From NCBI GenBank assembly GCA_965645245.1, contig OZ287067.1, positions 2,294,001 through 2,358,000 of the forward strand: 64,000 bases of DNA, in the 5' to 3' direction. Source of the DNA: Massalongia carnosa (taxonomy: Eukaryota). The notes under the pieces are model-generated. The model saw only the letters and a program-made list of their open reading frames with translations, did no database searches and was not told where the DNA came from. A program made the translations under genes and the position numbers. This document shows, piece by piece, positions 827 through 28,052 of this stretch (its first letter is position 1; each line of letters starts with the position of its first letter).

Positions 827-1702
827 CTAAGGGATATCGCCAAAATATTTATCGCGAAGCCTGTCCATAGCCAACTCCTAAGGGAATGATTCCAGGAATC
901 TCTCGATCTCATTTCGCCAGAACAGGTTCCGAGGGTTGACATTGCAAGCCGTCGCGTATTCCCAATAGTGGGGATACCAGCCCGCCGTCTCCCAATCGAT
1001 AATCCCCACAACATTATCTCCACGCGCAAGGACGTTCAAGCTGCTCAGATCGCCATGCGTAAAGCAAGGAACAGGCCAGATCCCATTGTGCAGAGCAATG
1101 AGCTCATTCACCTCGAGCTTATTGTCAGGACTGGTTTCGACTCCATTACGCAAATACCGATGAAACTCTTGGATCGTCTTGAAAGGTCCGAATCGTTCCA
1201 ACGGACTAGGAAGCCGGCAATCCCAGAGTGTCCCTCCATCCACACTCTCCACACCAATATTATTAGGTCGTGGTATGCTTCGCATCTCCTCCACCATGGT
1301 TTTCAGCTGATGTAATATCCTCGACTTTGAATCCTCCGACCGGCGCGCCCATTGATGACCCAACATCAATCCATCTATTCTCTGCATAACAATGTAGGTG
1401 TCTTTTCCCCGTTTAAAGGAGCAGTGAATCTTGGGTACCGGGATTGACGTATTCTGTGCAATGAATTGGATCGTGGCCGCCTCGGAAAGATCTCGGAAAG
1501 ATCCGTACTTAACACAAAGGTTGCGGGTAAGGAAGAGAACCCCGCCGCAGCGACGAGAACGGTGGCGCCGGAAAAGCTTGATAGCGGCAATGGTAAGCAT
1601 GCGATTGGCCCATGTATTATTGATAGGTTTCGACTCGGAGACTTCCCCCCATGATGAGAAGTTATAACGAGTTACATCGAGAATGACCATGATTTGTTGC
1701 AA
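827..1702 (-). pseudogene. Aminoglycoside phosphotransferase (APH)/kinase-like protein with a premature stop near the C-terminus
   Basis: ORF 878..1702 has FTHGDLSSLNVL and GIIDWETAGWYP motifs and N-lobe EAATIQFIAQNTSIPVPKI. Past the TAG at 878-880 the frame continues ELAMDRLRDKYFGDIP* to 827. True start uncertain. Confidence 0.75.
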
Positions 1703-2682
1703 TTTACGAGTACAATACCAGATGTATAGATTACAGAGCGCACTACCTTAGATTGTATCTGTTTTATCGTATTAACGGAGGATACATACAAATGATACTG
1801 TACTCCCTACAGAGTCAAATACCAATCTACGACACAAGCTTGATGAAAATTTTCCTTTTCCACTCAATCACCTTTAAAGTCTCTCCAGATCAGTCTATCG
1901 TTTTCTATTTCATGATTCCAAGACATTCCCGCTAATATTTAGTCAGAGTCATATTCTTTTCGTGTCGCTGATGGATGATATAATTGTCATGTCGATTTCA
2001 TTAATGGAAATGAAGTATTGCTACTCTGTATAAAGTTTTCCAAGGAATTTTGATGCAGGTTTCCATACATTATTCGAGCTATTTATTGTCTGAAAAGAAG
2101 CCATCCTTCCTTTCCTGGCTAAGATCTTTAAGATTCAAAGTTATTTCTTGAAAATTTTACACTTATGTTCAGAAATATTTGGAAAACTGTAGATAACGCC
2201 ATATTCATGATACTAATGATTATTAGGATCTGAATATCGGCAAGAGACATTCAGACTGGCCCTGGACCTAACCGCAATGCTTGGCTACTAAGTAAATAAG
2301 CAATACAGGGGAAGCGAATTCAACAAGGAACGTTTTCTGTGGGTCGTCGCAGAATCTGTAAATGACAATCTCCTTGTTGTGAGGGCGTATTGGGCCGGGC
2401 TAGGAGAGGAGTGAAACGGTTAAAGCCCAGCGTTCTTACGCCGCCAGGTTGAGGAAAATCTGCTTGAGCTACCCAACAGCTAGGTATTTTCTTCCACGGA
2501 GTTCTTAGTGTACTAGGAGTACCGAATTAGATTGCACTCTGCGTCAATGGAGTAAAACCACCTCCGTTCCCCGTGGCTGGCTTTTCATTGTAAGAATATT
2601 AGTACTAATGTTCACTAGATATCAACACGATCGGAAAATGGGAAATTTTTCAAAACTTCACTAGGAAAGCAACAGAGATCCG

Positions 2683-4179
2683 ATGCGATTATTTGTGATT
2701 CGAAACATGAACACTCAACAACTAAACTCGTTCGCGGTCGCACACGCACAGCAGAGGGATCATCTGCTGTCTAGAATCATGGAGTACCTCACAGAAGTAG
2801 GAGATGGGGGGGAACTGAAGGGGACCGAGGTCCTGAAGGAAGTGAGAGAATTTCTCCTAAATCAAAGGAATATTGACAATGATAACGATAAAACACCGTC
2901 CACCCTGAATAACACCCTAAGAGAAATTCAGCAAAGTCTTGCTCGCATCGAAAGCACAAAGCCAATCACAAAAGCAAACAACTACGCCGCTGCTGCAATT
3001 AGAGGCCAGGCCGTCGAGGCTCCACCGATTCCACGTCGCACTAAACCTACCGCACCCCTAAAACGCAATGAGCTCTCGCCTCAAGAAGTGCGAAAGGCTA
3101 GGGAAATCACCATCATTGTATCTAAAGAAACGGACAAAGACAAACTAAAGAACATGACCACTAAAGATCTCGTAGAGACACTACAAGCAGAGACGGAAGG
3201 GATCCGGGGAGTGTCACGGCTTATCAGTGGAGACCTCAAAATTCACACTGAATCTGCAGAGGCTAAAAAGGTTCTACAAGAGAACTCAGAATGGACCCAA
3301 AAGATAGCCGAATCTGCGGCAATAAAGACACGAACTTACTCTGTCAGAGTAAACGGGGTCAAGGTTGAACACATCAAAACTGCGAACCAATCACTAGCCA
3401 TAGGATACCTGAAGACCGCTAATGCACGCCTGCATCCAGACCTGAATATCAAGAAAATAGCCTGGTCCACTAAAGCTATAAGAGAGAAAAAGACGTACTC
3501 TACGCTACACATGGAAGTCGCAACGGCCGAAACGGCCAACCAGATCATAGCCGAAGGCCTCATTGTCGACTACGAAATCAAGGACTGCGAAAGGTTCACC
3601 AAGGGATGCACTATGATGCAATGCTTCAACTGTCACAAATACGGTCACATTGGTCGCTCATGCCCAAACCCTACCACCTGTGGCTACTGCGCCGGGGGCC
3701 ACCCTAGCGCAGAATGCAACATGGAAACAACGGGTAGATACCGAAGGTGTGCTGCATGCAATGAGAAAGGACATGAAGCATGGTCTACATCTTGCGAAAT
3801 CAGGAAATCAGAAAAACGTAAAGCAGACAAGGCCATGCAAAATCGGGTCCCGTTTTACTCAGTTGTCGCCCTCGCACCAGCCCCGTTCAGATTTCAAGGC
3901 GAAATCATAAACACAAACACAAACAACGCAAGCAGCAAAAAGCGGAAAATCGTATCACCTCCCGATTCGCCTCCCATTCCTCCAAGAATCGGAACAACCT
4001 GGGCTGACACCGGTATCATGAACCCAGAGAACATGGCGAAGGCCCTCGCAAAACCAATCGTAGGTAGGCCACCAACTAAACCCCGAGGTGAATCTACAGC
4101 TCCCATTATCCTCAATGCAAATGCGTCAACTAGCGCCGCCCCCACGACCTCTCAGGTCAACTCCATGGACGTCTTATGA
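2683..4179 (+). CDS. LINE ORF1 gag-like nucleic-acid-binding protein
   Basis: 498-aa ORF with CCHC knuckles (QCFNCHKYGHIGRSC, CGYCAGGHPSAEC, CAACNEKGHEAWSTSC). Its stop overlaps the ORF2 start (ATGA, 4176-4179). Start could be 2707. Confidence 0.9.
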   Translation: MRLFVIRNMNTQQLNSFAVAHAQQRDHLLSRIMEYLTEVGDGGELKGTEVLKEVREFLLNQRNIDNDNDKTPSTLNNTLREIQQSLARIESTKPITKANNYAAAAIRGQAVEAPPIPRRTKPTAPLKRNELSPQEVRKAREITIIVSKETDKDKLKNMTTKDLVETLQAETEGIRGVSRLISGDLKIHTESAEAKKVLQENSEWTQKIAESAAIKTRTYSVRVNGVKVEHIKTANQSLAIGYLKTANARLHPDLNIKKIAWSTKAIREKKTYSTLHMEVATAETANQIIAEGLIVDYEIKDCERFTKGCTMMQCFNCHKYGHIGRSCPNPTTCGYCAGGHPSAECNMETTGRYRRCAACNEKGHEAWSTSCEIRKSEKRKADKAMQNRVPFYSVVALAPAPFRFQGEIINTNTNNASSKKRKIVSPPDSPPIPPRIGTTWADTGIMNPENMAKALAKPIVGRPPTKPRGESTAPIILNANASTSAAPTTSQVNSMDVL

Positions 4180-7100
4180 GGAACACAAACTCTCTCTCCA
4201 TACTACAGTATAACGTCAGAAATGACAGAGTGAGTACTATGTTACCCCTCTTAGCAGACCCGAACACTCAGGATTATGACATTATCGCTATTCAAGAACC
4301 CTGGCGCAATCCCTTTGCTCCTACCACATTAAGCTCTCATCAAAGTGGATTTCACCTATTATATCGTCCAAATGGAGACACAAGAGTATGTTTCTACATC
4401 AATGACTCAATTGATCCCGATAGTTGGGAAGTAGAATTCCCGTCGGCAGACATGTGCACCCTAATAATACGCACAAAAATTGGAGAAACAGCAGAAGTGA
4501 TTCACGTTCATAATGTGTACAATCCTTCCCCCGCTTCCTATTCCTCTATAGACAGTCCGTCAACTTTACCGATTGTAAAACATCAGTTAACGACAGGATC
4601 AAATCACATTTTGTTAGGCGACTTCAACCTACATCATCCCCTTTGGAACGATCCGTCCAGAACAACGCAACATGCGGGCGCAGATCAACTGTTAAACATA
4701 ATTGAAGAGTCCAGTCTATCACTAACGCTACCAAAAGGCACTATCACATGGGAGGCTAGACAATCGTTCAGCACAATCGACCTTGTATTCATGTCGGAGA
4801 ATTTAACTGAAAGATTAGAACACTGCATGTCAAGACCTGAACTCAATCAGTCATCTGCTCACATACCAATCTCGACCCGAATAACACTTGATAGTGAGCC
4901 TCAAACAATCATCGAGCGTAGGGCATGGAAGTTATTGAACATGGAAAAATTGAGGGAAGCTGAAAAACAGGCTCCCCCTATTACTACCCCACGTTCTCAC
5001 GCCGAAATTGACGCGTACACCGTATCGATCCAAAAATTCCTTCAAGAAGTCATAAATGCCGCCGTTCCATGGGCCAGACCCAGCAAGTACGCTAAACCCT
5101 TTTGGAATGATGATTGCAGTGTAATTACGAAAGAAACACGCAGGCTCAGACGAGTCTGGACCAATTCCAGAGACCTCTCAGACTGGCTAACATACACGAA
5201 GTCCAATCACAGAAAACAAAAAGTTATTCAAAAAGCTAAAAGACTATCGTTTCGCAAGGAAATAGAAAAAGCCACTGAATCATCCATGGGATTATGGCGA
5301 CTAGCCAAATGGGCAAAAGACAAAGGTGAAAAGACAAGAGAACTTCCAAAAATGCCTAACCTCATCAAAGACGGCCAAATAGCATCCACATTCGAGGAAA
5401 AAACGGATATGCTTAAACAGAAATTCTTCCCACCCGCCCCTCCTGCTGACCTCAGCGATATAGAGGGCTCTTTCTATCCTAGCCCTCCCCACTGTCCCAT
5501 AATCGTAACCAGATCGGAAGTGACAGAATCGATACGCCGACTCAAACCCGACACGGCCCCTGGTCCGGACGGATAGCCAACAGAATTGTCAAGGCGTGCT
5601 CCGAAAAGCTGTCCGATTTACTAACTCCTTTGTTTCAAGCATGCATAGATCAGGCATATCATCCACGCGCATTCAAGACCGCAAATACAATCACACTGAG
5701 AAAGATAGACAAAGACGACTATACAGCTCCGAACGCCTATCGCCCCATAGCACTTCTGAACACGCTCGGCAAGGTTATGGAATCTATCATGTCCAAGAAA
5801 ATTACTCACCTAGCGCAAACCCACAGACTCCTACCGGACACACAGATAGGGGCCAGAAGAGGAAGATCAACCGAAACTGCTCTGGAATTGTTAACTGAAC
5901 AAATTTACACAGTATGGGGACAAGGCAACGACAAAATAGCTACTCTGTTAAGCATGGACGTAGCAGGAGCGTATGATACAGTGTCACATCGACGTTTAAT
6001 TCATAACCTGCGCAAACGAAAAATCCCAAAATGGATTACTGACTGGGTAGACAGTTTTTTAAACGAAAGAAGCACCACGCTAGCAATAAATAGCCGAGTC
6101 ACCGGCATATTCGAAGTACGAACTGGAATACCACAAGGCTCTCCTACTTCTCCTATCCTTTATCTATTCTATAACCCAGACCTGTTAGACATATGTGAAA
6201 GACCCGGAACAAACACGAGCGCCTTAGGTTTCGTAGACGACATAAACGTACTAGCATATGGGAAAAGCACGGAAGAAAACTGCAAAACGCTGGAGGAAAT
6301 TCACAAGAATTGCGAAAAATGGGCTATTCGACACGGATCAGTTTTTGCACCGAAAAAGTACGAACTGATACACTTGTCAAGAAATCCGAAGAAATTCAAC
6401 ATGTCTACTGTCGTTAGAATAGAAAACAGCATCATAGAACCAAAAACGGACATTAGAATCTTGGGACTTCGAATCGACACAAAAATGAAATGGGGTCCGC
6501 ACGTCAGAAAGATCCAGGAAAAATTGACAAAACAATCCAAGGCACTGACAAAAATTTCTACCTCCACATGGGGCGCCACCTTTCCAAAAGCCCGCCAAGT
6601 ATACACCGCCGTCGTCCGTCCGGCCATGACGTATGGTTCTACCATATGGCACACGCCAAAGGAAATAAAAAAATCGAACGGCATCTCAAACAAGCTAGCT
6701 GTCATACAGAATAAATGCTTACGAACTATAGCTGGGGCATTTAAGGCGACTCCCATACCGGTACTGGAAGCGGAAACGTACATAGCCCCAATTGATATAC
6801 ATCTAGATCAACTTCAGGCTCAGGCTAGATATCGCTTATGTCAGGGAGGTCAAAAGAAATTCATCATCAATGCATGCAACTCCATTGCAAACAAACTCAG
6901 AGGACGGGCTGGACGAAAGCGAGCTCCTGCGAGTACTCCGGGAACGCTGAAATATGCATGGGCCAAGAAAATAACATCGGACACACAAAAAAGCCTGATG
7001 CCGGTAGCGAACCCACCATGGGCCGAAACCCCCCCAAATACAGCTCGAGACATCCAAGAAGCGCGTGCCGTTCAAGGCAAAATAATCGCAAAAATAAAAC

Positions 7101-7534
7101 AACGACATACAGACGCATGGCAGACCTCTTGGAAATCATATCAGAACCTCACATCTACGCCTACTCCAGCACAAGCAGCCCCACTCACAAAAACACGCAT
7201 CAAATTACACGAAACCCTAGCCAAAGCAGAAAGCGCTCTATCAATTCAGATACGCTCAGAAAAGATAGGTCTAGCCGACTTCCTATTTAGACGTCGCGTT
7301 TCCGACGTCTTGACACCGAAGTGTCCATGTGGCTGGCCAAAACAAACCGCGAAACATGTAATCATGTTTTGCAAACTCAACAGTAACAGACGTTCAATGT
7401 TACGCTCCATAAGAACAAATAATTATAGACTCATTACTGACTCATCCAGAGCGATGAATCTAGTTACCGCTTGGTTAATGAAGACCGGCTTACTAACCCA
7501 GGTCTCACTGGCATCACAGCATTTATATCATTGA
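4176..7534 (+). pseudogene. LINE ORF2 (APE endonuclease, reverse transcriptase, C-terminal zinc finger) with one frameshift near 5572
   Basis: IAIQEPW and LLGDFNLHH endonuclease motifs; PQGSP and GFVDD RT motifs; CPCG..TAKHVIMFC. Copy 1 reads GACGGATAGCC where copy 2 reads GACGGAATAGCC (1-nt deletion). Confidence 0.9.
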
Positions 7535-10368
7535 CAATTGGCGATTAAATACGTCAATTCTTTTCTTTAACTTTTCATCGGTCAACTGTTCTTTAGGAAG
7601 ATCTCTCGACGGAGACTCGGAGAGTATTCGTAGAAGTATCGGATTACTTGGTTTTTCTTCCTCAAAAGGTTTTCCATGTATTATATAATCCCATAGACTT
7701 GCCCGCATGGGTCGGCCTTCGGCCGGTACCACATCGGAATAAGAATTATCATCATCATCATCATCATCAACACGATCGGAAAAAGAGCCAGCTCACATTT
7801 ACATCCGTGCAGCAAAAAATATATTCTAGAATTCCACAGGATAAATCGCCAGCAGAATCTGCACAGTTCATATCAGTGATCCCTTGGTAAGCTGCTGATA
7901 AAGCAGGCTTATATGGTACTTTATATTTAGGCCAATAACCATAAGCGGTGCATTAGGGCTTTCCCCGAGTGCTGCAGTTCGGTTCAGCGTATATTTCCGA
8001 GTCGGTGCCAAAATACTCTGGGTTGGAAACAATATCTGGACTCTTTGGATTTTGGGGGCTTTAATGGCTCTTCTGTTGACCGTATGAGGAAGTCGATGTT
8101 GCGACAAAGAAAGTAAGTATAGCGAGAGAGACGAGCATTATGGATTTGCTTGTATGAACCAGGTATGATCTGAGACTATGTTATGAGCGTTGAAATATTG
8201 ACATGCCACACAGTTTGGATATTTTAGGGGTACTAGAATTATTTGTAGACGCCGTTTACGGCTGACCATCTCACAATGTCTCCTCAAGTCATCAACACGA
8301 TGCAACCATGGGGCTTACAATCTTCAACTACCAAACCGTCCAGTCATAATTAAATACTTTTGCGAAGACGGAAAGGACTCCTTCCATGCTCTCGGCATTG
8401 AAGAGTAAAACATCCAAGCTTCACATAACTTGGCTCGAGGTCATCTCCCGCATGTAGAGCATATCGGAATACCTCTCGCAAAGCCAAACTTGGTCTCGCT
8501 ATGCCGTCGCTCACCTCCTAACTCCGAAGCGAGTCGGTCTTTCTGTCCCAAGTTTCTAGATATCCCTGCTGAATGTACCTTCTAATTGAAATTCGAGGTA
8601 GTAGTTAAATGGCTTGAACCATTATGCGCCTAACTCTTGGTGGCCCGTGCCTCGGCGTTGCATCTTTTACGATTTTGGGAATTTCCAGAGCTGTAACGAT
8701 GACAGCTGGGCGAAACTTCCTCATGCTTCACAGTTTGCACTTTACGAAGACTTCGCAGGTCTAGCTTTTTATAACCGGTACTACGATACCTCCATTTCCT
8801 CTTACTATCATAATAAAATTATTAAGAGATACAGAAGGCGTCATGGAATTTTGCTATTTCTAATCGCCAAAAAAGTCGAGAGTCTCACACAGTCCATTTA
8901 AGCGCCTCTTGCTTAATTTAAATTTAACAGCAAGGCAAAACGGTTCGCTGGTCCGTGATTAAGGATCGTCCACATGGCTTCCTCTGGGTTTGCGGAGCAC
9001 GCATTGGACATTAGATAGATACAGCGAGATGCTTAGGGACAGTCCCCCCCCGACCGTCCCCCCCCTTTGTGTAAATCTTTACTAGTAAACAGCCATTTTA
9101 CTACTCATCCAGGGTGCGTACAAGCTAGCAATTACACTACGTATTAATGTTGCTGTTACTGACTAAGTGTATTCAACACTTACAAATCTACCTATTGCGA
9201 TGACTTCAACTCCAAAAACTCGTCAGCCAATTGCGATACATCATCTTTTCTAGGCTTCATGGTTTCAGCCACCTTTCTCGCTTGAGCCCTAGCCTGTTTG
9301 ACTGATTTCTCGACTCTTTGCTGAGATTCCAACTCCAACTGAGCCTTTAATTTCTTCGCCACACCCCGAGACCTTCGCGTTGTTGCAGAGGAAGTAGGGA
9401 GAAGTTGACTGGCGCGCACGTTTTGGCTAAGACTATAAAGAGATGGAGCCGGCGCTGCCTGAGGTAGGGCTTTTTGACTATGCTTGGCAAGCACATCGTC
9501 AATATCTTCGAGCGAATCCGACGAGGCTTCTGATGTAAGAATAACATCATTATCGTCATTCGAAGGAAGCATAAGACCCATAGAACGACCGAGAATGGGC
9601 TGAGTGCTTATATACTGCACCTCGTCATCGTCGTCGGAGACGATAGACGCGTTTTCGATTCTCTCCATAACTAAGTTTTCTCCTAAACCTATTATACCCA
9701 ATATTAGCCGACCCGAGCGCAATAACTTTGCAACATCGTGAGTTTTACCTTCTGTTTCACCTTCAACCTCATCGTCGCCCCCAGCACGCAATCTATTATA
9801 TCTAAGCCTCCTCCCTTGTTCAATAGAGTCCCTTCGCCTAGTACGTCGCTGTTCAGTTTATCTAGCCTCAGCTGCCTCGCGACCAGTGTAGGCACGTCGA
9901 CGACTCCCTCCTTTCTTATACATGAGGTTTTCTTTGAACCGAATTTCGTCGGGGAATGTGATGAAGATGGGAGGTCTTACCAGCTCCTTCTTTTGCCATT
10001 TCTTATTGAACTTTTCAACGATGTGAGCATGCTCGCGAGCGTACTCCTCCCTTAGATGAGAATCTTCTATTGATTGATGCAGATCAATAAATTGATATGC
10101 CACAGAATGTAGCAAATCAAGGCCCCCGCGGCGAATTCTATCCTCAATCAACACGCCTTCTTCGAGCTCGACCTCATCCTTATCCGCCTCAATCTCTCTC
10201 GTCCCTTTGACCTCATCGACGATCTTTTCGACCTCGGGCTCCGAGCTGCGAGCGAGATCGAAGGTCATTTGCCAAGAGACCGCATAAGGTGGGCCATCAA
10301 AAAACCAGCGAGGATGAATGAGGGAAACTGGAATAGGGACCGAGTCGATGATACATTTATACAACCAG

Positions 10369-13035
10369 ACCCTTTTGGAATGATGAATGCAGTGTGATCA
10401 CGAAAGAAACTCGTAGGCTCAGACGTGTCTGGTCCAATTCCAGAGACATTTCTGATTGGATAACATACACAAAATCCAATCACAGAAAACAAAAAATCAT
10501 TCAAAAGGCTAAAAGACTGTCGTTCCGCAAGGAAATAGAAAAAGCCACCGAATCGCCTACTGGTCTCTGGCGACTAGCCAAATGGGCGAAAGACAAAAGT
10601 GACCAGACAAGAGAAATTCCCAAAATGCCCAATCTCGTTCGAGACGACCAAGTAGCAGAGACGTTCGAGGAGAAATCGGACATGCTAAAACAGAAATTCT
10701 TTCCACCCGCCCCTCCGGCCGACCTCAGCGACATAGAGGGTTCATTTTACCCCAGCCCGCCACAATGTCCAATGATCATAACCAAACTAGAGGTGATGGA
10801 AGCCATACGCCGACTCAAGCCCGATACGGCCCCGGGTCCGGACGGAATAGCCAACAGAATTGTAAAGGAATGCTCGGAAAAGCTAATCGAATTACTCACC
10901 CCACTGTTTCAAGCATATGTAGAACAAGCATATCATCCTCGTGCATTCAAAACCGCCAACACAATCACGCTCAAGAAAACAGGCAAGGATGACTATTCGG
11001 CCCCGAACGCCTATCGACCCATAGCACTCCTAAACACGCTTGGAAAAGTAATGGAATCCATCATGTCACAAAAAATAACCCATCTAGCGGAAACCCACCG
11101 ACTCCTGCCCGACACCCAGATGGGCGCCAGACGAGAAAGATCAACCGAATCTGCACTAGAATGTTGACTGAACAATTTTATACAGTGTGGGGCCAAGGCA
11201 CAGACAAAGTAGCCACATTATTGAGCATGGACGTAGCAGGAGCCTATGACACAGTGACACATCGAAGACTGATTCACAATCTTCGCAAAAGGAAAATCCC
11301 AAAATGGATCACTGACTGGGTGAACAGTTTTCTGAATGAAAGAAGCACTACCCTGGCGATTCACAGCCGAGTCACGGGCATATTCGATGTAAAAACCGGA
11401 ATCCCACAAGGCTCCCCTATTTCTCCTATTCTTTATCTGTTCTACAATGCAGACCTACTAGACATATGTGAAAGACCAGGCAGCAACACGAGTGCTCTAG
11501 GCTTCGTAGATGACATCAATGTGCTAGCATACGGAAAAAGCACCGAAGAAAATTGCAAGACGCTAGAGGTAATTCACAAAAAATGTGAAAAATGGGCAAG
11601 TCGACATGGTTCAGTCTTCGCTCCGAAGAAATACAAATTGATACATCTGTCAAGAAATCCGAAGAAATTCAACATGTTCACTGTTATTCAAATAGGAAAT
11701 AACATCATAAAACCAAAGACAGACATCAGAATTCTAGGACTTCAAATCGATTCAAAATTGAAATGGGGTGCTCACACAAGGAAAATCCAGGAAAAAATGA
11801 CAAAACAATCCAGGGCATTGACAAAAATATCCACCTCCACATGGGGCGCCACTCTTCTAAAGGCACGCCAGGTTTACACCGCCGTAGTCCGGCCGGCCAT
11901 GACGTACGGCTCCACCATTTGGCACATGCCAAAAGAAATTCAAAAATCAAACGTCATCTCAAACAAACTGGCTGTCATACAAAACAAATGTCTAAGAAAC
12001 ATAGCCGGAGCCTTCAAAGCAACGCCCATAGCTGTACTAGAAGCAGAGACATTTATAGCCTCAATTGACATACATTTAGATCAACTACAGGCCCAGACCA
12101 GACAACGCCTGTGTCGAAATGGTCAAAAGAGTTTCATCACAAATGCATGCAACAAAATAGCCAATAAACTTCGAGGTCGGGCAGGACGCAAGAGGGCCCC
12201 AGTCATCACTCCAGGAACGCTGAAATACGCCTGGGCCAAGAGAATCACATCGGAGGCACATAACCTTCCAACACCGACACCAAATCCACCATGGGCCGAA
12301 CCCCCCCCCCGAATCTCGCCCGAGAAATAGGGGAGGCACGCGCCGCTCATAACAAAATAACTGCTCAAATAAAAAACCTACACACATTTGCATGGCAGGC
12401 CTCGTGGAGATCATATCAGGAACGCACACCCGTTCCCACCCCGGCACAATCAGGTTCACTCTCCAAAAAACGCATCAAATTGCACGAAACTCTAGCCAAA
12501 GCGGAGAGCGCGCTAGCCATTCAGATACGCTCAGAAAAGATAGGCCTAGCCGCCTTCCTACATAGACACCGAGTCCCAGACGTCTCGTCCCCGAACTGCT
12601 CATGTGGCTGGCACAAACAGACTGCAAAACATGATCACATGTTTTGCAAACTCAACGACAACAGAAAAACTCTGCTAAATACGATAGGCACAAACAACTA
12701 TCGATTAATCACTGAGTCATCTAAAGCAATGAAATTAGTCACAAAGTGGCTAATGAAGACAGGTTTGTTGTCACAATTTTCGCTGACAGCACAGCATCTA
12801 TACTGCTAACAGTAGGCATGCTTTGTTTCATTTTTCATACTTGTCTTAGGTCAAAGGTTTTTTCATGGAGCACACGGCTGGGACCCGGAGGGTCCTCGGC
12901 CGGACACAGGATTGCATGGTTTTTCTTCCTCAAAAGGTTTTCCATGTACTATAAAACTAGATAGACTCGCCCGCATGGGCCGGCCTTCGGCCGGTACCAC
13001 ATCGGAATAAGAATCATCATCATCATCATCATCAT
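10369..13035 (+). mobile_element. 5'-truncated LINE, copy 2 (related subfamily of copy 1)
   Basis: Starts mid-ORF2 (homologous to ~5096 of copy 1). RT in three frames (shifts near 11160 and at poly-C 12301-12310). (CAT)n tail. 15-bp TSD CATTTATACAACCAG at 10354-10368 and 13036-13050. Confidence 0.95.
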
Positions 13036-13369
13036 CATTTATACAACCAGCATTTGCATGAAAAACCGTACCTTAAAGGCAATTCACAATCATAAACACA
13101 GCTTCCACCATCAGGAACAATTGAAAGGATTCGTTCAGCTAATGATTTGGCGGCATCGAGTTCTCTTGAAACGAGGCCAATGGCATGATGCGTAATTTTC
13201 CCAATGAGTAGCGTAAAAGCATTTCTATCTATCAATCTAGGATTGCGTATTCGCTGTTGATTGCACAAAATCTCCTGATCTAATTTTTTTTTCCACACCT
13301 CATCACATATTTTCTGCACCGATTGTCTTATAGAAGTGTTTCTATTGGTCACATTTTTAACCAATGAAC

Positions 13370-15102: not shown

Positions 15103-18100
15103 TCAACTGTGTAACCATGATTTCAAAGTATTAACAACCGCAAGTGTGTGAGGATGGCTGGCCCCGATCTTTTGGGTACGTAGATTAACAACACTTTCCA
15201 TTAATTCAATAGCTTCATCGTGACGGCCCTCAAGCTTATAGGTGTATGCCAGGTTGGCCATGCTGGTCAGCGTGTCTGGATGCTCCTCTCCCAGCACCCT
15301 CGTGCTCGTCCTCATCACTTGCACGTCCAGCTCCTCGGCCTCTTTCCATCGTCCTTGATTCCAAAATGTCGACGCCAGGTTGGCCATGCTGGTCAGCGTG
15401 GAAGGATGCTCCTCTCCCAGCACCCTCGTGCTCGTCCTCATCACTTGCACCTCCAGCTCCTCGGCCTCTTTCCATCGTCCTTGATTCCAAAATGTCGATG
15501 CCAGGTTGGCCATGCTGGTCAGCGTGTCTGGATGCTCCTCTCCCAGCACCCTCGTGCTCGTTCTCATCACTTGCACCTCCAGCTCTTCGGCCTCTTTCCA
15601 TCGTCCTTGATTCCTGTATGTCGATGCCAGGTTGGCCATGCTGGTCAGCGTGTCTGGATGCTCCTCTCCCAGCACCCTCGTCCTCGTCCTCATCACTTGC
15701 ACGTCCAGCTCCTCGGCCTCTTTCCATCGTCCTTGATTCCTGTATGTCGATGCCAGGTTGGCCATGCTGGTCAGCGTGGAAGGATGCTCCTCTCCCAGCA
15801 CCCTCGTCCTCGTCCTCATCACTTGCACGTCCAGCTCCTCGGCCTCTTTCCATCGTCCTTGATTCCTGTATGTCGATGCCAGGTTGGCCATGCTGGTCAG
15901 CGTGTCTGGATGCTCCTCTCCCAGTACCCTCGTCCTCGTCCTTATCACTTGCACGTCCAGCTCCTCGGCCTCTTTCCATCGTCCTTGATTCCAAAATGTC
16001 GATGCCAGGTTGGCCATGCTGGTCAGCGTGGAAGGATGCTCCTCTCCCAGCACCCTCGTGCTCGTCCTCATCACTTGCACGTCCAGCTCCTCGGCCTCTT
16101 TCCATCGTCCTTGATTCCTGTATGTCGATGCCAGGTTGGCCATGCTGGTCAGCGTGGAAGGATGCTCCTCTCCCAGCACCCTCGTGCTCGTCCTCATCAC
16201 TTGCACGTCCAGCTCCTCGGCCTCTTTCCATCGTCCTTGATTCCTGTATGTCGATGCCAGGTTGGCCATGCTGGTCAGCGTGGAAGGATGCTCCTCTCCC
16301 AGCACCCTCGTGCTCGTTCTCATCACTTGCACCTCCAGCTCTTCGGCCTCTTTCCATCGTCCTTGATTCCTGTATGTCGATGCCAGGTTGGCCATGCTGG
16401 TCAGCGTGGAAGGATGCTCCTCTCCCAGCACCCTCGTCCTCGTCCTCATCACTTGCACCTCCAGCTCCTCGGCCTCTTTCCATCGTCCTTGATTCCTAAA
16501 TGTCGATGCTAGTAAGCCAAGACTGTTAAGTGTGTCTCTATTTTCTATATCCAGTAATTCTTTCCTAATCTTTATAGCTTCTTGAATCCTAATCTCTGCT
16601 ATTGCATATTTGCCTTGAGCCAAAGCATACCACGCGCTATTATGAAGAATTCCTGCTTGTTGGAGTCGGCAATGCTGAGAAAGGTACTTGTACTTCAGAA
16701 TAATCTCTGCATGTGGTCCAAGAGCTTCACAAATCTTCCAATTGCTATGTTCTCCATTTGGAAACTGGTCTGCCAGTAAACTGAGCACCCCCTCCTTTTG
16801 TTTTTCCATCTGCTCATGCATTTCGAGCCACTTTCTAGTCGCAAGCTGTACAAGCCGATGCATCTCAAAACTATTCTTTTCTTTTTCCTCGACTATAAGT
16901 GAGAATTCAATCAGCGTTCCAATCGAATCTTCGAAGTCTATCGACGACCCGCTGTTGCTTTGATAAAAGAGAAATCCCGGAATGCCTTGTCGATCAAGCA
17001 AGCACATACAAGACAGAAGATCAGCTGCCGCTGTATTCTGATCTTTGATCTGATCAAATGAAATCTGCCATGTTGTCACAACAGAATTAGGAACGTCGGG
17101 ATCCCTTCGTAGATCTCCACCATCTTTGCTCAAGAGAGATATTTGATTGGATTCATTATGGCGGAAAAGTTCTAGATAACCAGAGATTGTCATTCTTGGA
17201 GCCTTGATAGCAATGTAAGCGGACGCTTGAGTAATAGCGAGCGGTATATATTCAAGAACTTTAATCAACTCGCTCTTATCTCTTTGATTGGATTGATCAT
17301 TGGGTAATTTCTTTGCAAGTAACGTATTGGTATCTTCTTCTCCCATTGCACTAATTCTAAAGACACGATTATCTTTGCCTGCAAGACGAATTGCTGTATT
17401 TTTATCTCTTGATGTTATTAAGATCAAGCTCTTTGCGTTTGAAGACAGATAACATGACAAAGATGATATCTCTCCACCTTCTCGAGGCACCTGAGCGGTA
17501 CTTGGATTAAAAAAAATGCTTGTATCGTCGGCATTATCGAGAATCATCAACCAGTCTCTGCTATCATCAGACCCCAGCCACCGGGAGACTAAACCTAATA
17601 TATCGATTTTGGGATCCTCAACTCCTGATAACTTGGCTGTAATTGCAATCTCACGATAACTTTGTTCAAAACGAGCAGCATTACTAGCGTGCACCCATAA
17701 CAGCGAAACTGAAGGAGTACTCAGCCTCAGTCGATATGCATACTCAATCGCGATTTGCGACTTCCTACTCGAGATTAGAGAATCGCAGAATATTCGAGGT
17801 CAATTATTTCATACCCAATACCACCCAAGCCAACTAGAGCTACTCGACGGGTAGATCGCGATTTCGAAAAGCTCTCATCAATCATTTTGATTATATCTTC
17901 ACGTCCAACAAAGTCTTCATCTCGTTCGAACGGCATCACCGTTGTGACTCGTATCTTCACCGATCCTTGACGCTTGAAGTCAGTCATATCAGATAACAGG
18001 GACTTTGCGGGTCATCGCTTGTACCGTCATAATTTCGACGAACCGTTGAGGAGGCATCCATGGTCATTCCTTCAATTACCTTACGAACATTTTGAAAATT

Positions 18101-20110: not shown

Positions 20111-20678
20111 GTACAATAGGTTTAGGAGAAAACTTAGTTATGAAGAGAATCGAAAACGCGCCTATCGTCTCCGACGATGATGACGAGGTGCAGTATATAA
20201 GCACTCAGCCCATTCTCGGTCGTTCTATGGGTCCTATGCTTCCTTCGGATGACGATAATGATGTTATTCTTACATCAGAAGCCTCGTCGGATTCGCTCGA
20301 AGATATTGACGATGTGCTTGCCAAGCATAGTCAAAAAGCCCTACCTCAGGCAGCGCCGCCTCCATCTCTTTATAGTCTTAGCCAAAACGTGCGCGCCAGT
20401 CAAATTCTTCCCACTTCCTCTGCAACAACGCGAAGGTCTCGGGGTGTGGCGAAGAAATTAAAGGCTCAGTTGGAGTTGGAATCTCAGCAAAGAGTCGAGA
20501 AATCAGTCAAACAGGCTAGGGCTCAAGCGAGAAAGGAAACGGCGATGAGAAAGGTGGCTAAAACCATGAAGCCTAGAAAAGATGATGTATCGCAATTGGC
20601 TGACGAGTTTTTGGAGTTGAAGTCATCGCAATAGATAGATTTGTAGGTGTTAAATACACTTAGTCAGTAACAGCAACA
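20111..20678 (+). mobile_element. Inverted near-identical duplicate of the MULE last exon and 3' region (9148-9697)
   Basis: ORF 20140..20634 matches ORF 9192..9791 almost residue for residue. The right copy has 6 extra codons (ETAMRK). Confidence 0.92.
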
Positions 20679-20884: not shown

Positions 20885-21465
20885 TCTTTCAAATAGTCTC
20901 TCAAATAGCCCCCGCTGATTTTTGTAAGACTTCACATCTAACCCCTAAATAGTCTTTCAAATAATCTTCGCTGCTTTTCAAATAGTCTCTCAGATAGCCT
21001 CTCAAAAATCTCCCAAAAAGTCTTTCAAATAGCCTCCCAAATAGCCTTTCAATTATCTCTCAAGTATCTCTCAAATATCTCCCAAATAGCCTTCCAAATA
21101 TCCCCCCAAATAGCTATCAAATAACCTCTCAAATAGTCTCCGCTGCTTTTCAGATAGCCTCTCAAATAGTCTTTCAAATAGTCTCGCATAAAGCCTCTCA
21201 AATAATTTTCACCGCTTTCAAATAGTCTCTCAAATAGTCTTTCAAATAGCCTTCCAGATATTCTGCGTTGCTTTCCAAATAACTCTTCAAATAGTCTTCC
21301 AGATAGCTATCAAATAATCTCCCAAATAGTCTCTCAAATAACTTTCCAATTAGCCTCTCAAATAGTCTCTCAGATAATCTCCGCTGCTTTTCAAATAGCC
21401 TTTCAAATAGTCTCTCAAATAGTTTTCCAAATAGCTATCAGACAGTCTCTTGAATAGCCTCAATA
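20885..21465. repeat. Degenerate ~12-bp minisatellite (consensus near AAATAGTCTCTC) with interspersed CCGCTGCTTTTC units
   Basis: Dozens of variants of AAATAG(T/C)CT(C/T)TC visible in tandem. Confidence 0.85.
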
Positions 21466-24038: not shown

Positions 24039-25268
24039 ATGGCACCATCTACTCCACCACCACAGGCCAAAAAATCCCCTCATGCTGATACCATCAGAAA
24101 AACCTGCTTTTTCATGCTTTTGATCATCGGCCGGAATGTCATCATCAAAGATGTCTGCGAGCAGGAGAGCATCAAGCTCGATCGAGGAAAATATTGGCTG
24201 AAGCAACGCCAGCGTCTTGAAGACGTCGCCTATCGACGACGTTCTCGTAGCGGTCGACCTAAAAAAGTGAGCATTTAGTTGATAAATCAAATGCTGAATT
24301 CACATACAAATAGCGTTCGCGATCAGCCGTACACCGTACAATTGGAGCACTTTCATATAGATGCAACGCAACGTACACTGCAAAGAGGATTCAGTGCTCG
24401 CAAACCTCGTGCTGCTCGATTTAAAAAAGCGAAGGTGAAAACGCTCAGTCAGAAAAACGAGCGAATACGAGTTCTATACGGGAAAGAGCATGAAAATCAT
24501 ACTATTGAGAATTTCTGGCAGTACGTTCATTTCACGGATGAGGCTCATTTCGACCCGGATCAAACGTACCAAGAGCGAGTTCTTCGAGAGGAAGGCACTA
24601 GATACGAGTCAGAAAACATGCAAAAGATGCCGGACATGAAGGGAGTAAAACTGCATTTGGCCGCTTCTATTTCGTGGCATCATAAAGGGCCGCTGACGTT
24701 TTACAATGACGAGCACGACGCGCCTGAAATTCAGGTTCACAAGCCCAGAAAACCACACAAGTCGAAGTATGAAACGGAGCATGATCATCGTCAGCGAATA
24801 GCTGAATGGGAGGCATCTCTACCTCACGATTTAGAAATTAAATCAAAAGGCAATAGCATGACTCAAGCTTACTTTACGGAGCGTCTGCTTCCCGGCTATA
24901 TGACTGAAATTCATGAATGTCGTGTTTTTCATGATCGATTTTGCATCTTTCAAGAAGATAACGATCCTAGTCACGGCACACGATCTACAGACAATATCGT
25001 ACGTAGAATTAAGGCAGCTAGCTGGATTGAAACGTTGAATCATCCTCCGCAATCCCCTGATCTCAATCCAACGGAAGGGGTATGGAATATTCTGAAACAG
25101 CGAGTTAGACGGCGACGGTGCAGCAATGTGAGAGAGTTAAAACGGGTGATTCTAGATGAATGGAACAAAATATCTATAGATGAAACGGGCCCGAATTAAG
25201 GAGATGCCTGATCGATGTAAGAGATTAATAGCGACGGAGGGCAAAGCAATAAAATCCGATCTATGGTA
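24039..25268 (+). pseudogene. Tc1-like DDE_3 transposase with in-frame stop (24276-24278) and frameshift near 25185
   Basis: FTDEAHF, FQEDNDPSHG and HPPQSPDLNPTEGVW motifs. The C-terminus RARIKEMPDRCKRLIATEGKAIKSDLW lies in a shifted frame. Confidence 0.88.
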
Positions 25269-27812
25269 ATCGTCGGCTCGCTTAGCTCCGTGGATCCGAC
25301 TAAAATGCGAAAGCATTTTAGTCGGGGAAAGCGGTGCATCCCGGAAAGCGGTGCATCCCGGAAAGCGGTGCATCCCGGAAAGCGGTGCATCCAGCCAAAA
25401 TCATCAAATTTTCATCTTTTTCACCTTTTACCCTCAATCATCTGAATAACTAGCTTGATTATTGACGATTTAATCACCTCATATTGATAAGTATAGCCTT
25501 CCCAGCATTTATTCCTAAAATAACTAGTTATTTCATCGGATTGTCGCATATTCAGCTTTTCTATACGTCCTCAATCATCCTTTTTATCCATCATTCTTAA
25601 CCCACTCCATGGATAGTAACGCCCCCATTCTCAATCCCATGGAGGAAGCGAAGCAATTTCTGAAGACAAATCCCAAAGAAACCAAGATGACTGCATCCAG
25701 ACTTTTCAACGTCAACGTTAAAACGTTGACTTCTTCCATTCGTCGTTGTTCGGGAGTGAAAAATGGAGGACAAAATCAGATATTGAGAGATCATGAAACA
25801 AAGGCTATCAATGGTTTTATTCAATCTTTGTTGGTGCATGGAATTCCACCTACGCATCAAATCGTTTTTAATGCCATTGTAAGCTTGAAAAAAGCTCATA
25901 ATCCCCTCGATGTAGGGCCGTCAAGACGATGGTTTCGGGATTGGTGGAAGCGTAGCAATTTGCATAAAATCAAGACAAAACCATTGTCCATGATCCGATT
26001 TGAAGCCGCTCAGGAATCGGATGTGACCAGATGGTTTGCTGATTATAGGCATGCATTGAAAACACTGAATATTCGAAAAAGACGAAATATTCTGAATTTT
26101 GATGAAGCTGGCTTCCGCATTGGGTGCATGAGGGGACAGGAAATTCTTGTTCCCATGGAAATTAAACAATTCTACGCGGTCAGCCCGGAAAACCGTAGAT
26201 CGGCGACGATTATCGAGACAATCAATGCTGCCGGCGACTATCCCCCCCCTCCGATGGTCATCATACAAGGTCATGACATCATGGCCATATGGTTTTCGGA
26301 TGATCTGCCACAGGGCACGCATATCGTGCCTTCGGACAGTGGATTTACATCTGATAAGATAGCAGTTGAATATCTGAAACATCTTATCAAGAATTCAGAT
26401 GCAGGACCGAATGCGGATTGGAAATTGTTGCTTATGGATAATCACGGCAGTCATATTACTCCTGAATTTGTTGCTTTGGCCAATGAAAATCACATTCGTC
26501 CTTATCCACTAATTCCGCATTTAACCCACTGTATGCAGCCATTGGATGTGGGTGTATTTCAACCCTATAAGCATTGGCATAATGTGGCTATTCAAGAGAC
26601 TATATCGGAGTCATTTATTGAGTATTCCCTGACGCAATTTCTGAAGGATTTGGTCAAAATCAGGAATAATACCTTCAACCCATCCACTATTCGACATGCC
26701 TTTGAAAAGTCGGGCATGTGGCCTGTTAATCCAAAAGCATGCATTCAACAGCTGAAAACATTCAATCCCAACAATCCAAACAATCTGACTGAGATTCTGA
26801 CCGAGACGAATAATGATAATCAGCTCACATTACCCCCCCTACCTCGTCAAATCCAACCAAGGGAAATAGCCGACATAGAATATGGATTGGATCATCAATG
26901 GGGACCAAAAATTCAGGAATCTATGCAATGGAGTGACCCCATTCGGGCTGAGGAATTTGACTCATTCGTTATCAATGCAAAAGAAGTTATTTCGAACTCG
27001 ATTCTCAAGGAAACGGAGCTGAAAATGTGGCAACAGACACGAATGCAACAGTTAAACAGTAGAAAATTTTCTCGCAAACGACTGAGACCTGAATCAGGAA
27101 AATTGGGACTGACTAAGGAAGATGCGGAGCATGCCTTAACCATGAAGCTACAACACGAAAAAAAGGCTGAAAAGAAACGAGTGGACAATAAGTTTATGAA
27201 GATATGGAGAATGGAAAGAGACGAAATTCACGTCAAGGGAATGGCTGCTCGAAAAGCAGAAAGGGATCGAGTCAAACGATTAAAAGAAATGACCAAAACC
27301 CTCAATCCCATACCAATTGAGTTGTATGAAGCAATTTCTGACCCCGAGGCCTTATGGAAAGCGACGAATGAGGTGTGGATAGCTGAGGAAGCGAAGAAAG
27401 AAGCCAGAAAAAATCCACGTGTCAATGCTACGATTGATGAGGAAGAAACCGCGATTGTAGTAGATGAAGAATCATGGGTGCAGAGAGATTTCGGGGGCTC
27501 CATCGAGATGCAAAGTGATTTCGTATCTTTCATGGATGAAGAGGATGAGGAGAATGCGGGGTATGGGGGGAACCGGAAGAATCGGGGGGATCGAAGGGAT
27601 CAGGGGGGTCGAGGGGATGATTTTGATGATGGTTATGATGATGACACTGTTTTTCAAGCTTTGTATGACGTTAGCTAATGATTAACCCAGATGATTGAGG
27701 GTAAAAGGTGAAAAAGATGAAAATTTGATGATTTTGGCTGGATGCACCGCTTTCCCCGACTAAAATGCTTTCGCATTTTAGTCGGATCCACGGAGCTAAG
27801 CGAGCCGACGAT
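25269..27812 (+). mobile_element. pogo/Fot1-like DNA transposon B, apparently intact
   Basis: TIRs 25269-25444 and 27688-27812, identical apart from three extra 17-bp units on the left; TA TSD at 25267-25268 and 27813-27814. Confidence 0.95.
25609..27678 (+). CDS. pogo/Fot1 DDE_1 transposase (689 aa, uninterrupted)
   Basis: NFDEAGFRIG, LLMDNHGSH and THCMQPLDVGVF catalytic motifs; N-terminal HTH; acidic tail. Confidence 0.93.
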   Translation: MDSNAPILNPMEEAKQFLKTNPKETKMTASRLFNVNVKTLTSSIRRCSGVKNGGQNQILRDHETKAINGFIQSLLVHGIPPTHQIVFNAIVSLKKAHNPLDVGPSRRWFRDWWKRSNLHKIKTKPLSMIRFEAAQESDVTRWFADYRHALKTLNIRKRRNILNFDEAGFRIGCMRGQEILVPMEIKQFYAVSPENRRSATIIETINAAGDYPPPPMVIIQGHDIMAIWFSDDLPQGTHIVPSDSGFTSDKIAVEYLKHLIKNSDAGPNADWKLLLMDNHGSHITPEFVALANENHIRPYPLIPHLTHCMQPLDVGVFQPYKHWHNVAIQETISESFIEYSLTQFLKDLVKIRNNTFNPSTIRHAFEKSGMWPVNPKACIQQLKTFNPNNPNNLTEILTETNNDNQLTLPPLPRQIQPREIADIEYGLDHQWGPKIQESMQWSDPIRAEEFDSFVINAKEVISNSILKETELKMWQQTRMQQLNSRKFSRKRLRPESGKLGLTKEDAEHALTMKLQHEKKAEKKRVDNKFMKIWRMERDEIHVKGMAARKAERDRVKRLKEMTKTLNPIPIELYEAISDPEALWKATNEVWIAEEAKKEARKNPRVNATIDEEETAIVVDEESWVQRDFGGSIEMQSDFVSFMDEEDEENAGYGGNRKNRGDRRDQGGRGDDFDDGYDDDTVFQALYDVS

Positions 27813-28052
27813 TAAATTCTGATGATTTTGGTGAGGTGGCTTGAAAATTTTGGTGAGGGGCCCTGACCCCCATTAGGTAAAAACTTTTGACACCCACGTG
27901 GGCAATGCTGGTAGAAGTTGAACATTCAACACATTCGATAACGCGTCAGCCCGAAATTCGGAAACGATAGAAGAAAAATGGAGAGCGTCTGAAGAAAAAA
28001 AACGGGATCGCGAATGAATAACAGGAGTTTGTTTTTGCACCTAATGAAATAA

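Follow-up and report, generated by a model that had tools for sequence, protein, structure and literature searches.

We found in the window (the whole stretch of 64,000 nt that was analysed) the remains of an orphan gene for a small secreted protein, located in a transposon island. We regard it as likely that this was a single-copy gene of two exons encoding a secreted protein of about 110 residues, that it was killed by premature stop codons, that the LINE now occupying its intron was a later arrival, and that RIP was at most a minor factor. The pseudogene yields no protein at present, and we reject the idea that read-through of the stops or editing of the RNA could rescue it, in view of the two TAA codons and the 5.2-kb intron. 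In kind, this is an ordinary form of gene decay.

The host groups with the lichen-forming Lecanoromycetes. The locus lies within a transposon-rich island of ~45 kb and is surrounded by MULE, DDE, Tc1-type, and LINE remains. At least 69 matches to DUF3435, the Starship captain domain, were found in the genome (60 of 60 candidates scored), and none among these is on contig C1.

Structure of the pseudogene

A recheck of the window reproduced all coordinates of the first-pass annotation: the LINE is antisense in the sole intron, the TSD and splice signals are in place, removal of the element with one TSD leaves a GT-AG intron of 13+18+40 = 71 nt, and two TAA codons interrupt the frame (Table 1). 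The six Cys of exon 1 are at positions 55, 63, 92, 101, 109, and 110, the last two forming the CC pair, with the spacing C-x6-[stop]C-x28-C-x8-C-x7-CC; the protein was probably disulphide-bonded. Hydropathy of 2.0-2.5 over residues 1-15 is compatible with a putative signal peptide, as is the helix at residues 2-16, the sole part above pLDDT 60 in a single-sequence AlphaFold model that otherwise gives no usable fold (mean pLDDT 40.7).

Table 1. Features of the pseudogene, the inserted LINE, and the adjacent sequence (window positions)
Feature	Position	Strand	Remarks
Neighbouring phosphotransferase-family (APH, PF01636) ORF	878..1747	(-)	open in window
Segment missing from run X5 lichen-metagenome contig	1474..7884		3-nt microhomology at joint
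Exon 2	2527..2580	(-)	AAG acceptor: 17 codons + stop; CAG acceptor: 10 codons, other frame
Intron, 3' part	2581..2620	(-)	CTAAT (branch) at 2602; AAG (acceptor) at 2581, with CAG competing at 2577
TSD, left copy	2621..2638	(+)	18 nt, exact
LINE, whole	2639-7765	antisense to pseudogene	18-nt TSD, (TCA)n tail
LINE 5' segment	2639..2701	(+)	63 nt, in this copy only; other 9 copies align from 2702-2704
LINE ORF1	2707..4179	(+)	490 aa, open, Cys/His knuckle motifs; no Pfam match
LINE ORF2	4134..7534	(+)	apurinic-type endonuclease (PF14529, PF03372) + reverse transcriptase (PF00078); frameshift near 5572
LINE 3' UTR and (TCA)n tail	7535..7765	(+)	at least 43 genome matches (best 40 of 469 candidates scored)
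TSD, right copy	7766..7783	(+)	18 nt; first 4 nt also fit TCA tail
Intron, 5' part	7784..7796	(-)	donor GTGAGC at 7796
Exon 1	7797..8138	(-)	114 codons; A at -3 of the ATG; residues 2-13 hydrophobic; linker rich in Pro; six Cys
In-frame TAA, codon 62	7953..7955	(-)	immediately 5' of Cys63; same in run X3
In-frame TAA, codon 26	8061..8063	(-)	same in run X3

The proposed protein of 131 codons stands as to its exon-1 frame and its six Cys with the CC pair; its second exon depends on the choice of acceptor. The AAG/C acceptor is of a minority type (RAG/Y acceptors account for 2.18% of 2022 Fusarium introns; PMC5677156). With the CAG located 4 nt beyond it, the intron would be 75 nt long and exon 2 would code for 10 residues in a different frame, and because of this second acceptor the exon-2 frame, and hence the length of 131 codons, is uncertain. 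Exon 2 contains no Cys in either spliceable frame. With 124-131 codons and six Cys, the protein is short and cysteine-rich.

Contigs of run X3, a second sample under the same organism label, match the window at 1191-2732 and 7780-9050 with 0 differing letters; thus, errors of assembly do not account for the stops or for the LINE junction on the left. Run X4, with a depth of about 2-8 on the gene and no joint listed, carries no evidential weight. The earlier description of a small secreted cysteine-rich protein gene that is now dead is supported by the anatomy, by run X3, and by the coding score given below.

The LINE element

The inserted element has a TSD, a simple 3' tail, dispersed copies, staggered 5' starts, and an ORF for endonuclease and reverse transcriptase (PF14529, E 8e-19; PF00078, E 2e-29), and its clade is presumably Tad. 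Its insertion lengthens the intron from 71 to 5216 nt. Judged by a private divergence of 0.4-0.7% (12/3238 or 17/2378 sites in two comparisons), the copy is young, and this divergence is an upper bound on its age, since some of the changes counted were passed on by a parent element that is not in the sample. A search for TSDs at 5 more copies, or pairs of copies, of the LINE found none. In full-length copies, the 5' leader is built of stacked pieces of ~50-60 nt that come from several loci; these mosaic leaders may be a more interesting lead than the dead gene.

Coding potential and homologue searches

We trained a codon-periodic model on 18 host ORFs; it gives the exon-1 frame a score of -0.016 versus -0.12 to -0.25 for the five other frames. 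This score is at the 6th percentile among 49 coding pieces and above 347 of 348 non-coding pieces, which also trained the background of the model and thereby favour the exon-1 result. A rule demanding a signal, at least six Cys, a CC pair, and at most two stops, fixed after the sequence had been seen, selects 7 frames from 3 Mb of simulated DNA, and an intron-like context was seen at 27 of 1000 sites chosen at random; the joint chance of the frame and the intron context is low. Real sequence (124 kb) holds 4 more frames that satisfy the same rule; therefore, the ORF traits by themselves are not rare here.

Searches of protein databases, metagenome contigs, and the own genome returned no homologue of exon 1. 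All queries were exon 1 alone (114 codons, X at the stops), so that a weak match needing the C-terminus could be missed. A word-index search of 5.8 billion proteins, covering lengths of 62-2000 aa, gave 2 candidates of 62-200 aa and 24 of 201-2000 aa, none at E <= 1. The 3 phmmer matches among 1.84 billion representatives were rejected, as all are long repetitive proteins with domains of bacterial type whose scores add up from 7-9 weak stretches. None of 213 pattern matches in metagenome contigs was confirmed. The DNA search of the own genome found exon 1 itself as the one match, and a second protein match (E 0.29) was rejected as being antisense within an unrelated long ORF. No family in Pfam (E <= 10), PF09044/Kp4 included, and none of 177,635 PDB sequences matched; the Kp4-like loci of the same genome have no similarity to the exon-1 protein (best E 2.6 among 1591 frames). 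A DNA pattern for the Cys spacing, covering contig C1 and part of C2, gave 714 matches, mostly simple repeats, with no non-repeat secreted-protein frame among 30 examined of the first 100 listed.

The epithet 'effector-like' holds for the small size and the cysteine content; since the host is lichen-forming and no homologue was found, 'effector' is a mere analogy. Judging from the anatomy only, the product would have been a small extracellular protein whose target was the surface of the thallus or else partners and microbes. For its former role, an effector-like or antimicrobial function has about an even chance, and a function other than these or that of a hydrophobin is somewhat less probable.

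Evidence on RIP

The first-pass annotation had ascribed both stops to RIP-type CAA>TAA changes. This is not borne out, since neither the LINE nor its nearest relatives have undergone RIP, 31 of the 32 two-kb bins of the window have a negative composite RIP index, and 140 of the 340 private changes of the LINE family are transversions (with 75 AT>GC and 125 C>T). Candidate copies were scored for the best 40 of 469, which creates a bias towards unRIPped ones. The index is -0.44 for the LINE and -0.59 for exon 1. The LINE has a GC content of 0.456 and the lowest 1-kb value in the window is 0.374; RIP calling in Cladonia uses GC <35% (PMC12542154). Only 2 of the 17 private changes of the LINE copy are CpA>TpA, exon 1 retains 22 CA and 21 TG dinucleotides with 3 CAA codons, and the combination of CpA depletion and TpA excess was not found in the gene and the adjacent repeat. 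A substantial part of RIP in the loss of the gene is therefore not supported. Weak RIP-like activity in the genome may exist, because C>T changes of the LINE family occur at CpA mildly above expectation (47 of 125 versus 28% expected, p = 0.016) and the genome has four cytosine-methylase loci, one BAH-bearing and three other C5-methylase loci.

Alternative explanations

Two alternatives concern what the locus was. That there never was a gene, but a chance frame with chance splice signals around a LINE in non-coding DNA, appears very improbable: the absence of a homologue from every search, the low AlphaFold confidence, the minority acceptor, and the 4 further frames passing a post hoc rule would agree with it, but the coding score is specific to the exon-1 frame, frames and intron-like sites of this kind are infrequent in simulated DNA and at random sites, respectively, the frame ends in phase at the donor, and database relatives are often missing for small secreted proteins of fungi (205 of 608 in Xanthoria parietina; 10.1101/2024.08.16.608140). 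The dead gene may instead have been a class I-like hydrophobin (PF01185) minus two of its eight Cys, a doubtful proposal that bears on identity only and is compatible with stops preceding the LINE. Its size and putative signal fit, its Cys spacing would do so given the loss of one doublet and of the final Cys, the second stop adjoins Cys63, where a doublet is expected, lichen hydrophobins are known (10.1101/2022.08.19.504535), and a search of the rest of the genome, without positive control, yielded no PF01185 gene. However, the pseudogene has six Cys and one doublet versus the family-defining eight Cys and two doublets (10.1101/2022.08.19.504535), TAA is not one step from any Cys codon, neither exon-2 frame supplies a Cys, and the Pfam and PDB searches with exon 1 were negative.

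The other two alternatives concern how the gene died. RIP leaking from the inserted LINE might have made both stops, and several observations agree with this: both are TAA, and of the 7 sense codons one step from TAA, CAA is the sole one by a single transition; their distances to the end of the LINE (7765) are 188 and 296 nt; the CpA excess and the methylase loci exist; RIP is reported for Cladonia (PMC12542154) and Xanthoria (10.1101/2024.08.16.608140); and its leakage is reported for Cladosporium fulvum (PMC9453070). Against this, the adjoining LINE is itself unRIPped with ORF1 open, the 43 CA/TG targets in exon 1 are intact, and nearly all bins are negative, so we consider RIP leakage highly unlikely. 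It is also unlikely that the LINE came first and killed a working gene because a 5.2-kb antisense intron was not spliced, with the stops following by neutral decay. The enlarged intron, compared with Fusarium core introns of 42-529 nt (PMC5677156), speaks for such an effect; however, with 5.2% of single changes in exon 1 creating a stop, 0.065-0.125 stops are expected at 0.37-0.71% divergence, an upper bound on age, and the probability of two or more after the insertion is 0.002-0.007, assuming equal neutral rates in the exon and the LINE. The order of events, previously stated to be unknown, can thus be estimated: the stops probably came first and the LINE later, because the LINE is young and two neutral stops after it are improbable.

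In the preferred reading, ordinary point mutations to TAA, the first at codon 26, would have killed the gene; the stops are seen and their timing is inferred. With selection gone, the LINE would have inserted into the short intron through target-primed reverse transcription, which is the established mechanism of LINEs, in agreement with the observed TSD, tail, and endonuclease/reverse transcriptase, and a 63-nt piece would have been added at its 5' joint. In a separate lineage, a microhomology deletion would have taken the 3' part of the gene.

Alleles in other samples

This 6.4-kb deletion, present in run X5 with its joint in one contig, takes everything in the gene from codon 85 on, with the intron and exon 2, and also one third, at the 5' end, of the kinase-like (APH) ORF. 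It cuts the latter at codon 92, past the VK80 motif, and is therefore the derived state. By the listed ends, the resulting fusion of exon 1 and the APH ORF is out of frame, and 17 gap letters elsewhere in the contig may alter the frame; no such fused protein was found in the protein search. An empty-site allele, joining 2638 to 7784, was not among the 15 joints listed (19 more were unlisted).

The two null alleles, one with stops and LINE and the other with the deletion, might have arisen independently in a gene of an undescribed lichen-restricted secreted family whose loss was favoured. In this reading, which we hold to be improbable, the loss would resemble that of avirulence genes in pathogens, except that a mutualist would be reacting to the alga, to a lichenicolous parasite, or to the microbiome. 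Should the two null alleles prove to be independent, and should relatives still have an intact form, the locus would offer a case of possible partner-driven gene loss in lichens that can be put to the test. As it stands, it offers a clean, datable death of a secreted-protein gene in a lichen fungus without RIP, in which the transposon would be a late passenger and not the killer, and it cautions that a TAA beside a repeat need not mean RIP.

Comparison with known systems

The element resembles fungal two-ORF LINEs (Tad/MGL) in the Cys/His knuckles of ORF1, the endonuclease and reverse transcriptase of ORF2, the short-repeat tail, TSDs of 11-18 nt, and foreign pieces fused at the 5' end. Unlike in the MGL chimeras (PMC2104539), the leaders of its full-length family copies consist of several ~50-60-nt pieces and not of one long RNA such as WEIRD.

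The pseudogene is much like copy C of Ecp11-1 in Cladosporium fulvum (PMC9453070), a gene for a small secreted protein that likewise has premature stops and an inserted LINE-like element and lies in a repeat-rich region. There, the element, of 4489 bp, is located towards the 3' end of the gene, which is a duplicate hit by RIP (C:G>T:A in 70 of 93 changes) beside two paralogues that are intact; in contrast, the pseudogene described here is single-copy and without a RIP signature, its LINE is intronic, and its host is a lichen fungus. The encoded protein is not a member of the large Kp4-like group of Xanthoria parietina (10.1101/2024.08.16.608140), having no Kp4 match; it resembles the orphan secreted proteins and putative effectors of that lichen mycobiont in being small and without database match; unlike the pseudogene, those orphans are intact and partly upregulated in the thallus.

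Structure of the disrupted gene

Re-checking the window sequence confirmed all coordinates of the first-pass annotation, which had described a LINE in the only intron of a minus-strand gene (exon 2 at 2580-2527), two TAA stops and a six-cysteine frame. This anatomy stands on the coordinates, the target-site duplication and a second sample with the same organism label, X3, one of four runs compared with the window out of seven listed. X3 contigs matching 1191-2732 and 7780-9050 differ from the window at zero letters, and therefore the stops and the left LINE junction are real.

Coordinates of the disrupted gene, the inserted element and the deletion
Feature	Position	Strand	Details
Exon 1	8138-7797	minus	114-codon frame, TAA at codons 26 and 62
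Intron 3' signals	CTAAT at 2602, AAG at 2581	minus	
Target-site duplication	2621-2638 / 7766-7783		exact, 18 nt, flanks plus-strand element of 5127 nt
Leader, window copy	2639-2706		68 nt, copy-specific
Leader, second full-length copy	L009:1800-2043	minus	244 nt, copy-specific
Leader, third full-length copy	L011:1384-1503	plus	120 nt, copy-specific
X5 deletion	1474-7884		6.4 kb absent, 3-nt microhomology at joint

Exon 1 encodes a hydrophobic stretch (residues 2-13) and cysteines at positions 55, 63, 92, 101, 109 and 110, and its frame is in phase where the donor GTGAGC begins (7796). With the element and one copy of the duplication taken out, the intron is 71 nt long (13+18+40). The 3' end of the gene model (AAG or CAG acceptor) is uncertain, because the AAG/C acceptor type is rare, at 2.18% in Fusarium as reported in PMC5677156, and a competing CAG 4 nt downstream would give an alternative 10-residue protein end.

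Gene or chance frame

Trained on 18 host ORFs, a codon-periodic model gave exon 1 a score of -0.016, and the five remaining frames scored between -0.12 and -0.25. The 5th percentile of coding pieces (n=49) was -0.018, and 347 of 348 non-coding pieces, which had also trained the background, scored below exon 1. Chance was gauged by an ORF rule written after the fact (signal-like start, at least six Cys, a CC pair, at most two stops): seven such frames occurred in 3 Mb of DNA simulated from the flanks, exons included, and an intron-like context was found at 27 of 1000 random sites. Four other such frames in 124 kb of real DNA, three of them in a transposon-rich stretch, count against a gene. A real gene is nevertheless much the likelier reading of exon 1, because the in-phase donor, branch and acceptor combine with the coding score. 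One of the other frames, at 42956-43297 (+), combines a signal-like start with six Cys and a CC pair, is broken by a single stop, shows no further gene sign and is probably due to chance.

Searches with exon 1 as the only query found no relative among 5.8 billion proteins in two length ranges, nor in metagenome contigs, Pfam, PDB or the fungus's own genome; three matches among 1.84 billion representative proteins were spurious repeat matches. The first-pass annotation would have taken the lack of a homologue or predicted signal peptide as refuting its reading; no homologue was found, and support for the gene comes from the splice signals and coding score. Likewise without match are 205 of 608 secreted proteins reported in Xanthoria parietina, whose largest reported effector-like group is Kp4-like (10.1101/2024.08.16.608140). 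A Kp4-like identity was ruled out by comparison with the genome's own six Kp4-like loci (L087-L094; contigs C8, C3, C5, C13 and C1), four of which have an uninterrupted frame and a signal-like start; a TAG interrupts one locus on C1, the window's contig. The cysteine spacing is similar to that of hydrophobins, whose eight-Cys, two-doublet definition (10.1101/2022.08.19.504535) does not fit the gene. The single-sequence structure model was unusable (pLDDT 40.7). With no relative found and known families not matched, the former role is read from anatomy alone: that of an extracellular, probably disulphide-bonded small protein.

The inserted element and its leaders

On its sequence the inserted element is a LINE, with an open ORF1 (490 aa, Cys/His knuckles), an endonuclease (PF14529), a frameshift near 5572 that parts it from a reverse transcriptase (PF00078), and a (TCA)n tail that dispersed copies have in common with it. 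Its first 63 nt are unique in the genome. The L009 and L011 copies belong to a related subfamily and have clear TSDs of 16 and 11 nt; TSDs were sought for five other copies and not found. The two longer leaders have only their last 30 nt in common, and their distal parts are stacked pieces of about 50-58 nt matching unrelated loci (L096-L102, L104, L106, L107) at 94-100%; one piece lies in sense orientation within a GDSL-lipase-like gene, and one has a short overlap at the joint. Template jumping at the LINE 5' joint is already known (PMC2104539; PMC2666801), and the serial stacking, seen in two copies only, suggests serial template jumps, retained and inherited as leaders.

A second, 5'-truncated LINE (10354-13050; 79% identity to the first; 15-nt TSD at 10354 / 13036) lies, apparently as a nested insertion, in a MULE-like element; the end of that element at 9148-9697 is present again in inverted orientation at 20111-20678.

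Origin of the stops and order of events

The first-pass annotation had attributed both stops to CAA>TAA changes of RIP type, which the sequence does not bear out. Divided into two-kb bins, the window has a composite RIP index below zero in 31 of 32; the LINE scores -0.44 and exon 1 -0.59. The lowest 1-kb GC is 0.374, and RIPped DNA of Cladonia rangiformis is reported to have GC below 35% (PMC12542154). Private changes among LINE copies at least 90% identical (n=340, from the best 40 of 469 candidate copies) comprised 140 transversions, 75 AT>GC and 125 C>T. The CpA share of the last, 47/125 vs 28% expected (p = 0.016), is a mild excess that counts against a reading free of RIP but is far from RIP levels. 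In the window copy, CpA>TpA accounts for only 2 of 17 private changes, and exon 1 retains 43 CA/TG dinucleotides. RIP leakage requires a RIPped neighbour, and the adjoining LINE is unRIPped, so leakage as the cause of the stops is unsupported. Leakage is operationally defined in PMC9453070.

Four C5 cytosine-methylase loci (L045-L050; C6, C15, C17, C18) are candidates for RID or DIM-2; one C5-methylase locus has BAH and DUF7893 domains, though the transposons examined are without RIP.

Private differences in the window copy number 12 over 3238 sites, or 17 over 2378 under a looser rule, and set an upper limit to its age. A stop results from 5.2% of single changes to exon 1, which gives 0.065-0.125 stops expected since insertion (P of at least two, 0.002-0.007). 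Under equal neutral rates, so few expected stops imply that both predate the insertion; the stop mutations would have come first, and the LINE would then have landed in an already dead gene.

In X5, a lichen-metagenome run, a single contig of 10,237 nt follows the window from 9051 down to 7885 and then resumes at 1473, with 18 differing letters and 17 gap letters over 7885-9051. On this comparison the deletion is the derived state, because the break cuts the gene at codon 85 and the neighbouring phosphotransferase-family (APH) ORF, 878-1747 (-), at codon 92, beyond its VK80 motif. Across the joint, exon 1 and the APH ORF run in the same direction; by the listed ends their fusion would be out of frame, though not certainly. 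No empty-site joint was present among the 15 joints listed of 34.

Host and genomic setting

The host genome comprises 52 Mb in 25 contigs. Two of the ten CDC73 clusters examined carry species names, Loxospora ochrophaea (best, 78%) and Varicellaria rhodocarpa, both Lecanoromycetes. Judged by these matches and by the presence of the locus in a lichen metagenome, a lichen-forming fungus is the most likely host, rather than a plant pathogen. An island of about 45 kb, rich in transposons and flanked by ordinary core genes, holds the gene together with MULE, DDE, Tc1-type and LINE remains, the kinase-like APH ORF and a TPR-repeat gene.

The last, an 898-aa open frame at 15103-17799 (-) in which ten 126-nt repeats, 95% identical, code for TPRs and which has a DUF7779 domain, resembles a fungal NLR-type gene. 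At 20947-21450 lies a degenerate tandem array with 42 copies of a 12-nt unit, and a 17-nt array forms 100% inverted repeats (25267-25444 / 27688-27814) that flank a DDE_1 transposase ORF. None of the 60 candidates scored for a Starship captain lies on C1; the whole genome has at least 69 DUF3435 matches at roughly 20 loci on at least 16 other contigs, several near-identical in score, and is unusually rich in captain-like genes.

Comparison with known systems

The feature is real and ordinary in kind; the first-pass annotation was right on anatomy and wrong on RIP. Repeated, selected loss of a lichen-specific secreted protein is improbable. A title-level search of the lichen literature found no matching title, and we do not claim that such cases are absent. 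Small secreted genes disrupted by transposons within repeat-rich islands form an already known kind; new here are the sequence, an orphan, and the group to which the host belongs. The closest case found is Cladosporium fulvum Ecp11-1 copy C, with premature stops and a LINE-like insertion, which, unlike this gene, is described as inactivated via RIP on a duplicate (PMC9453070).
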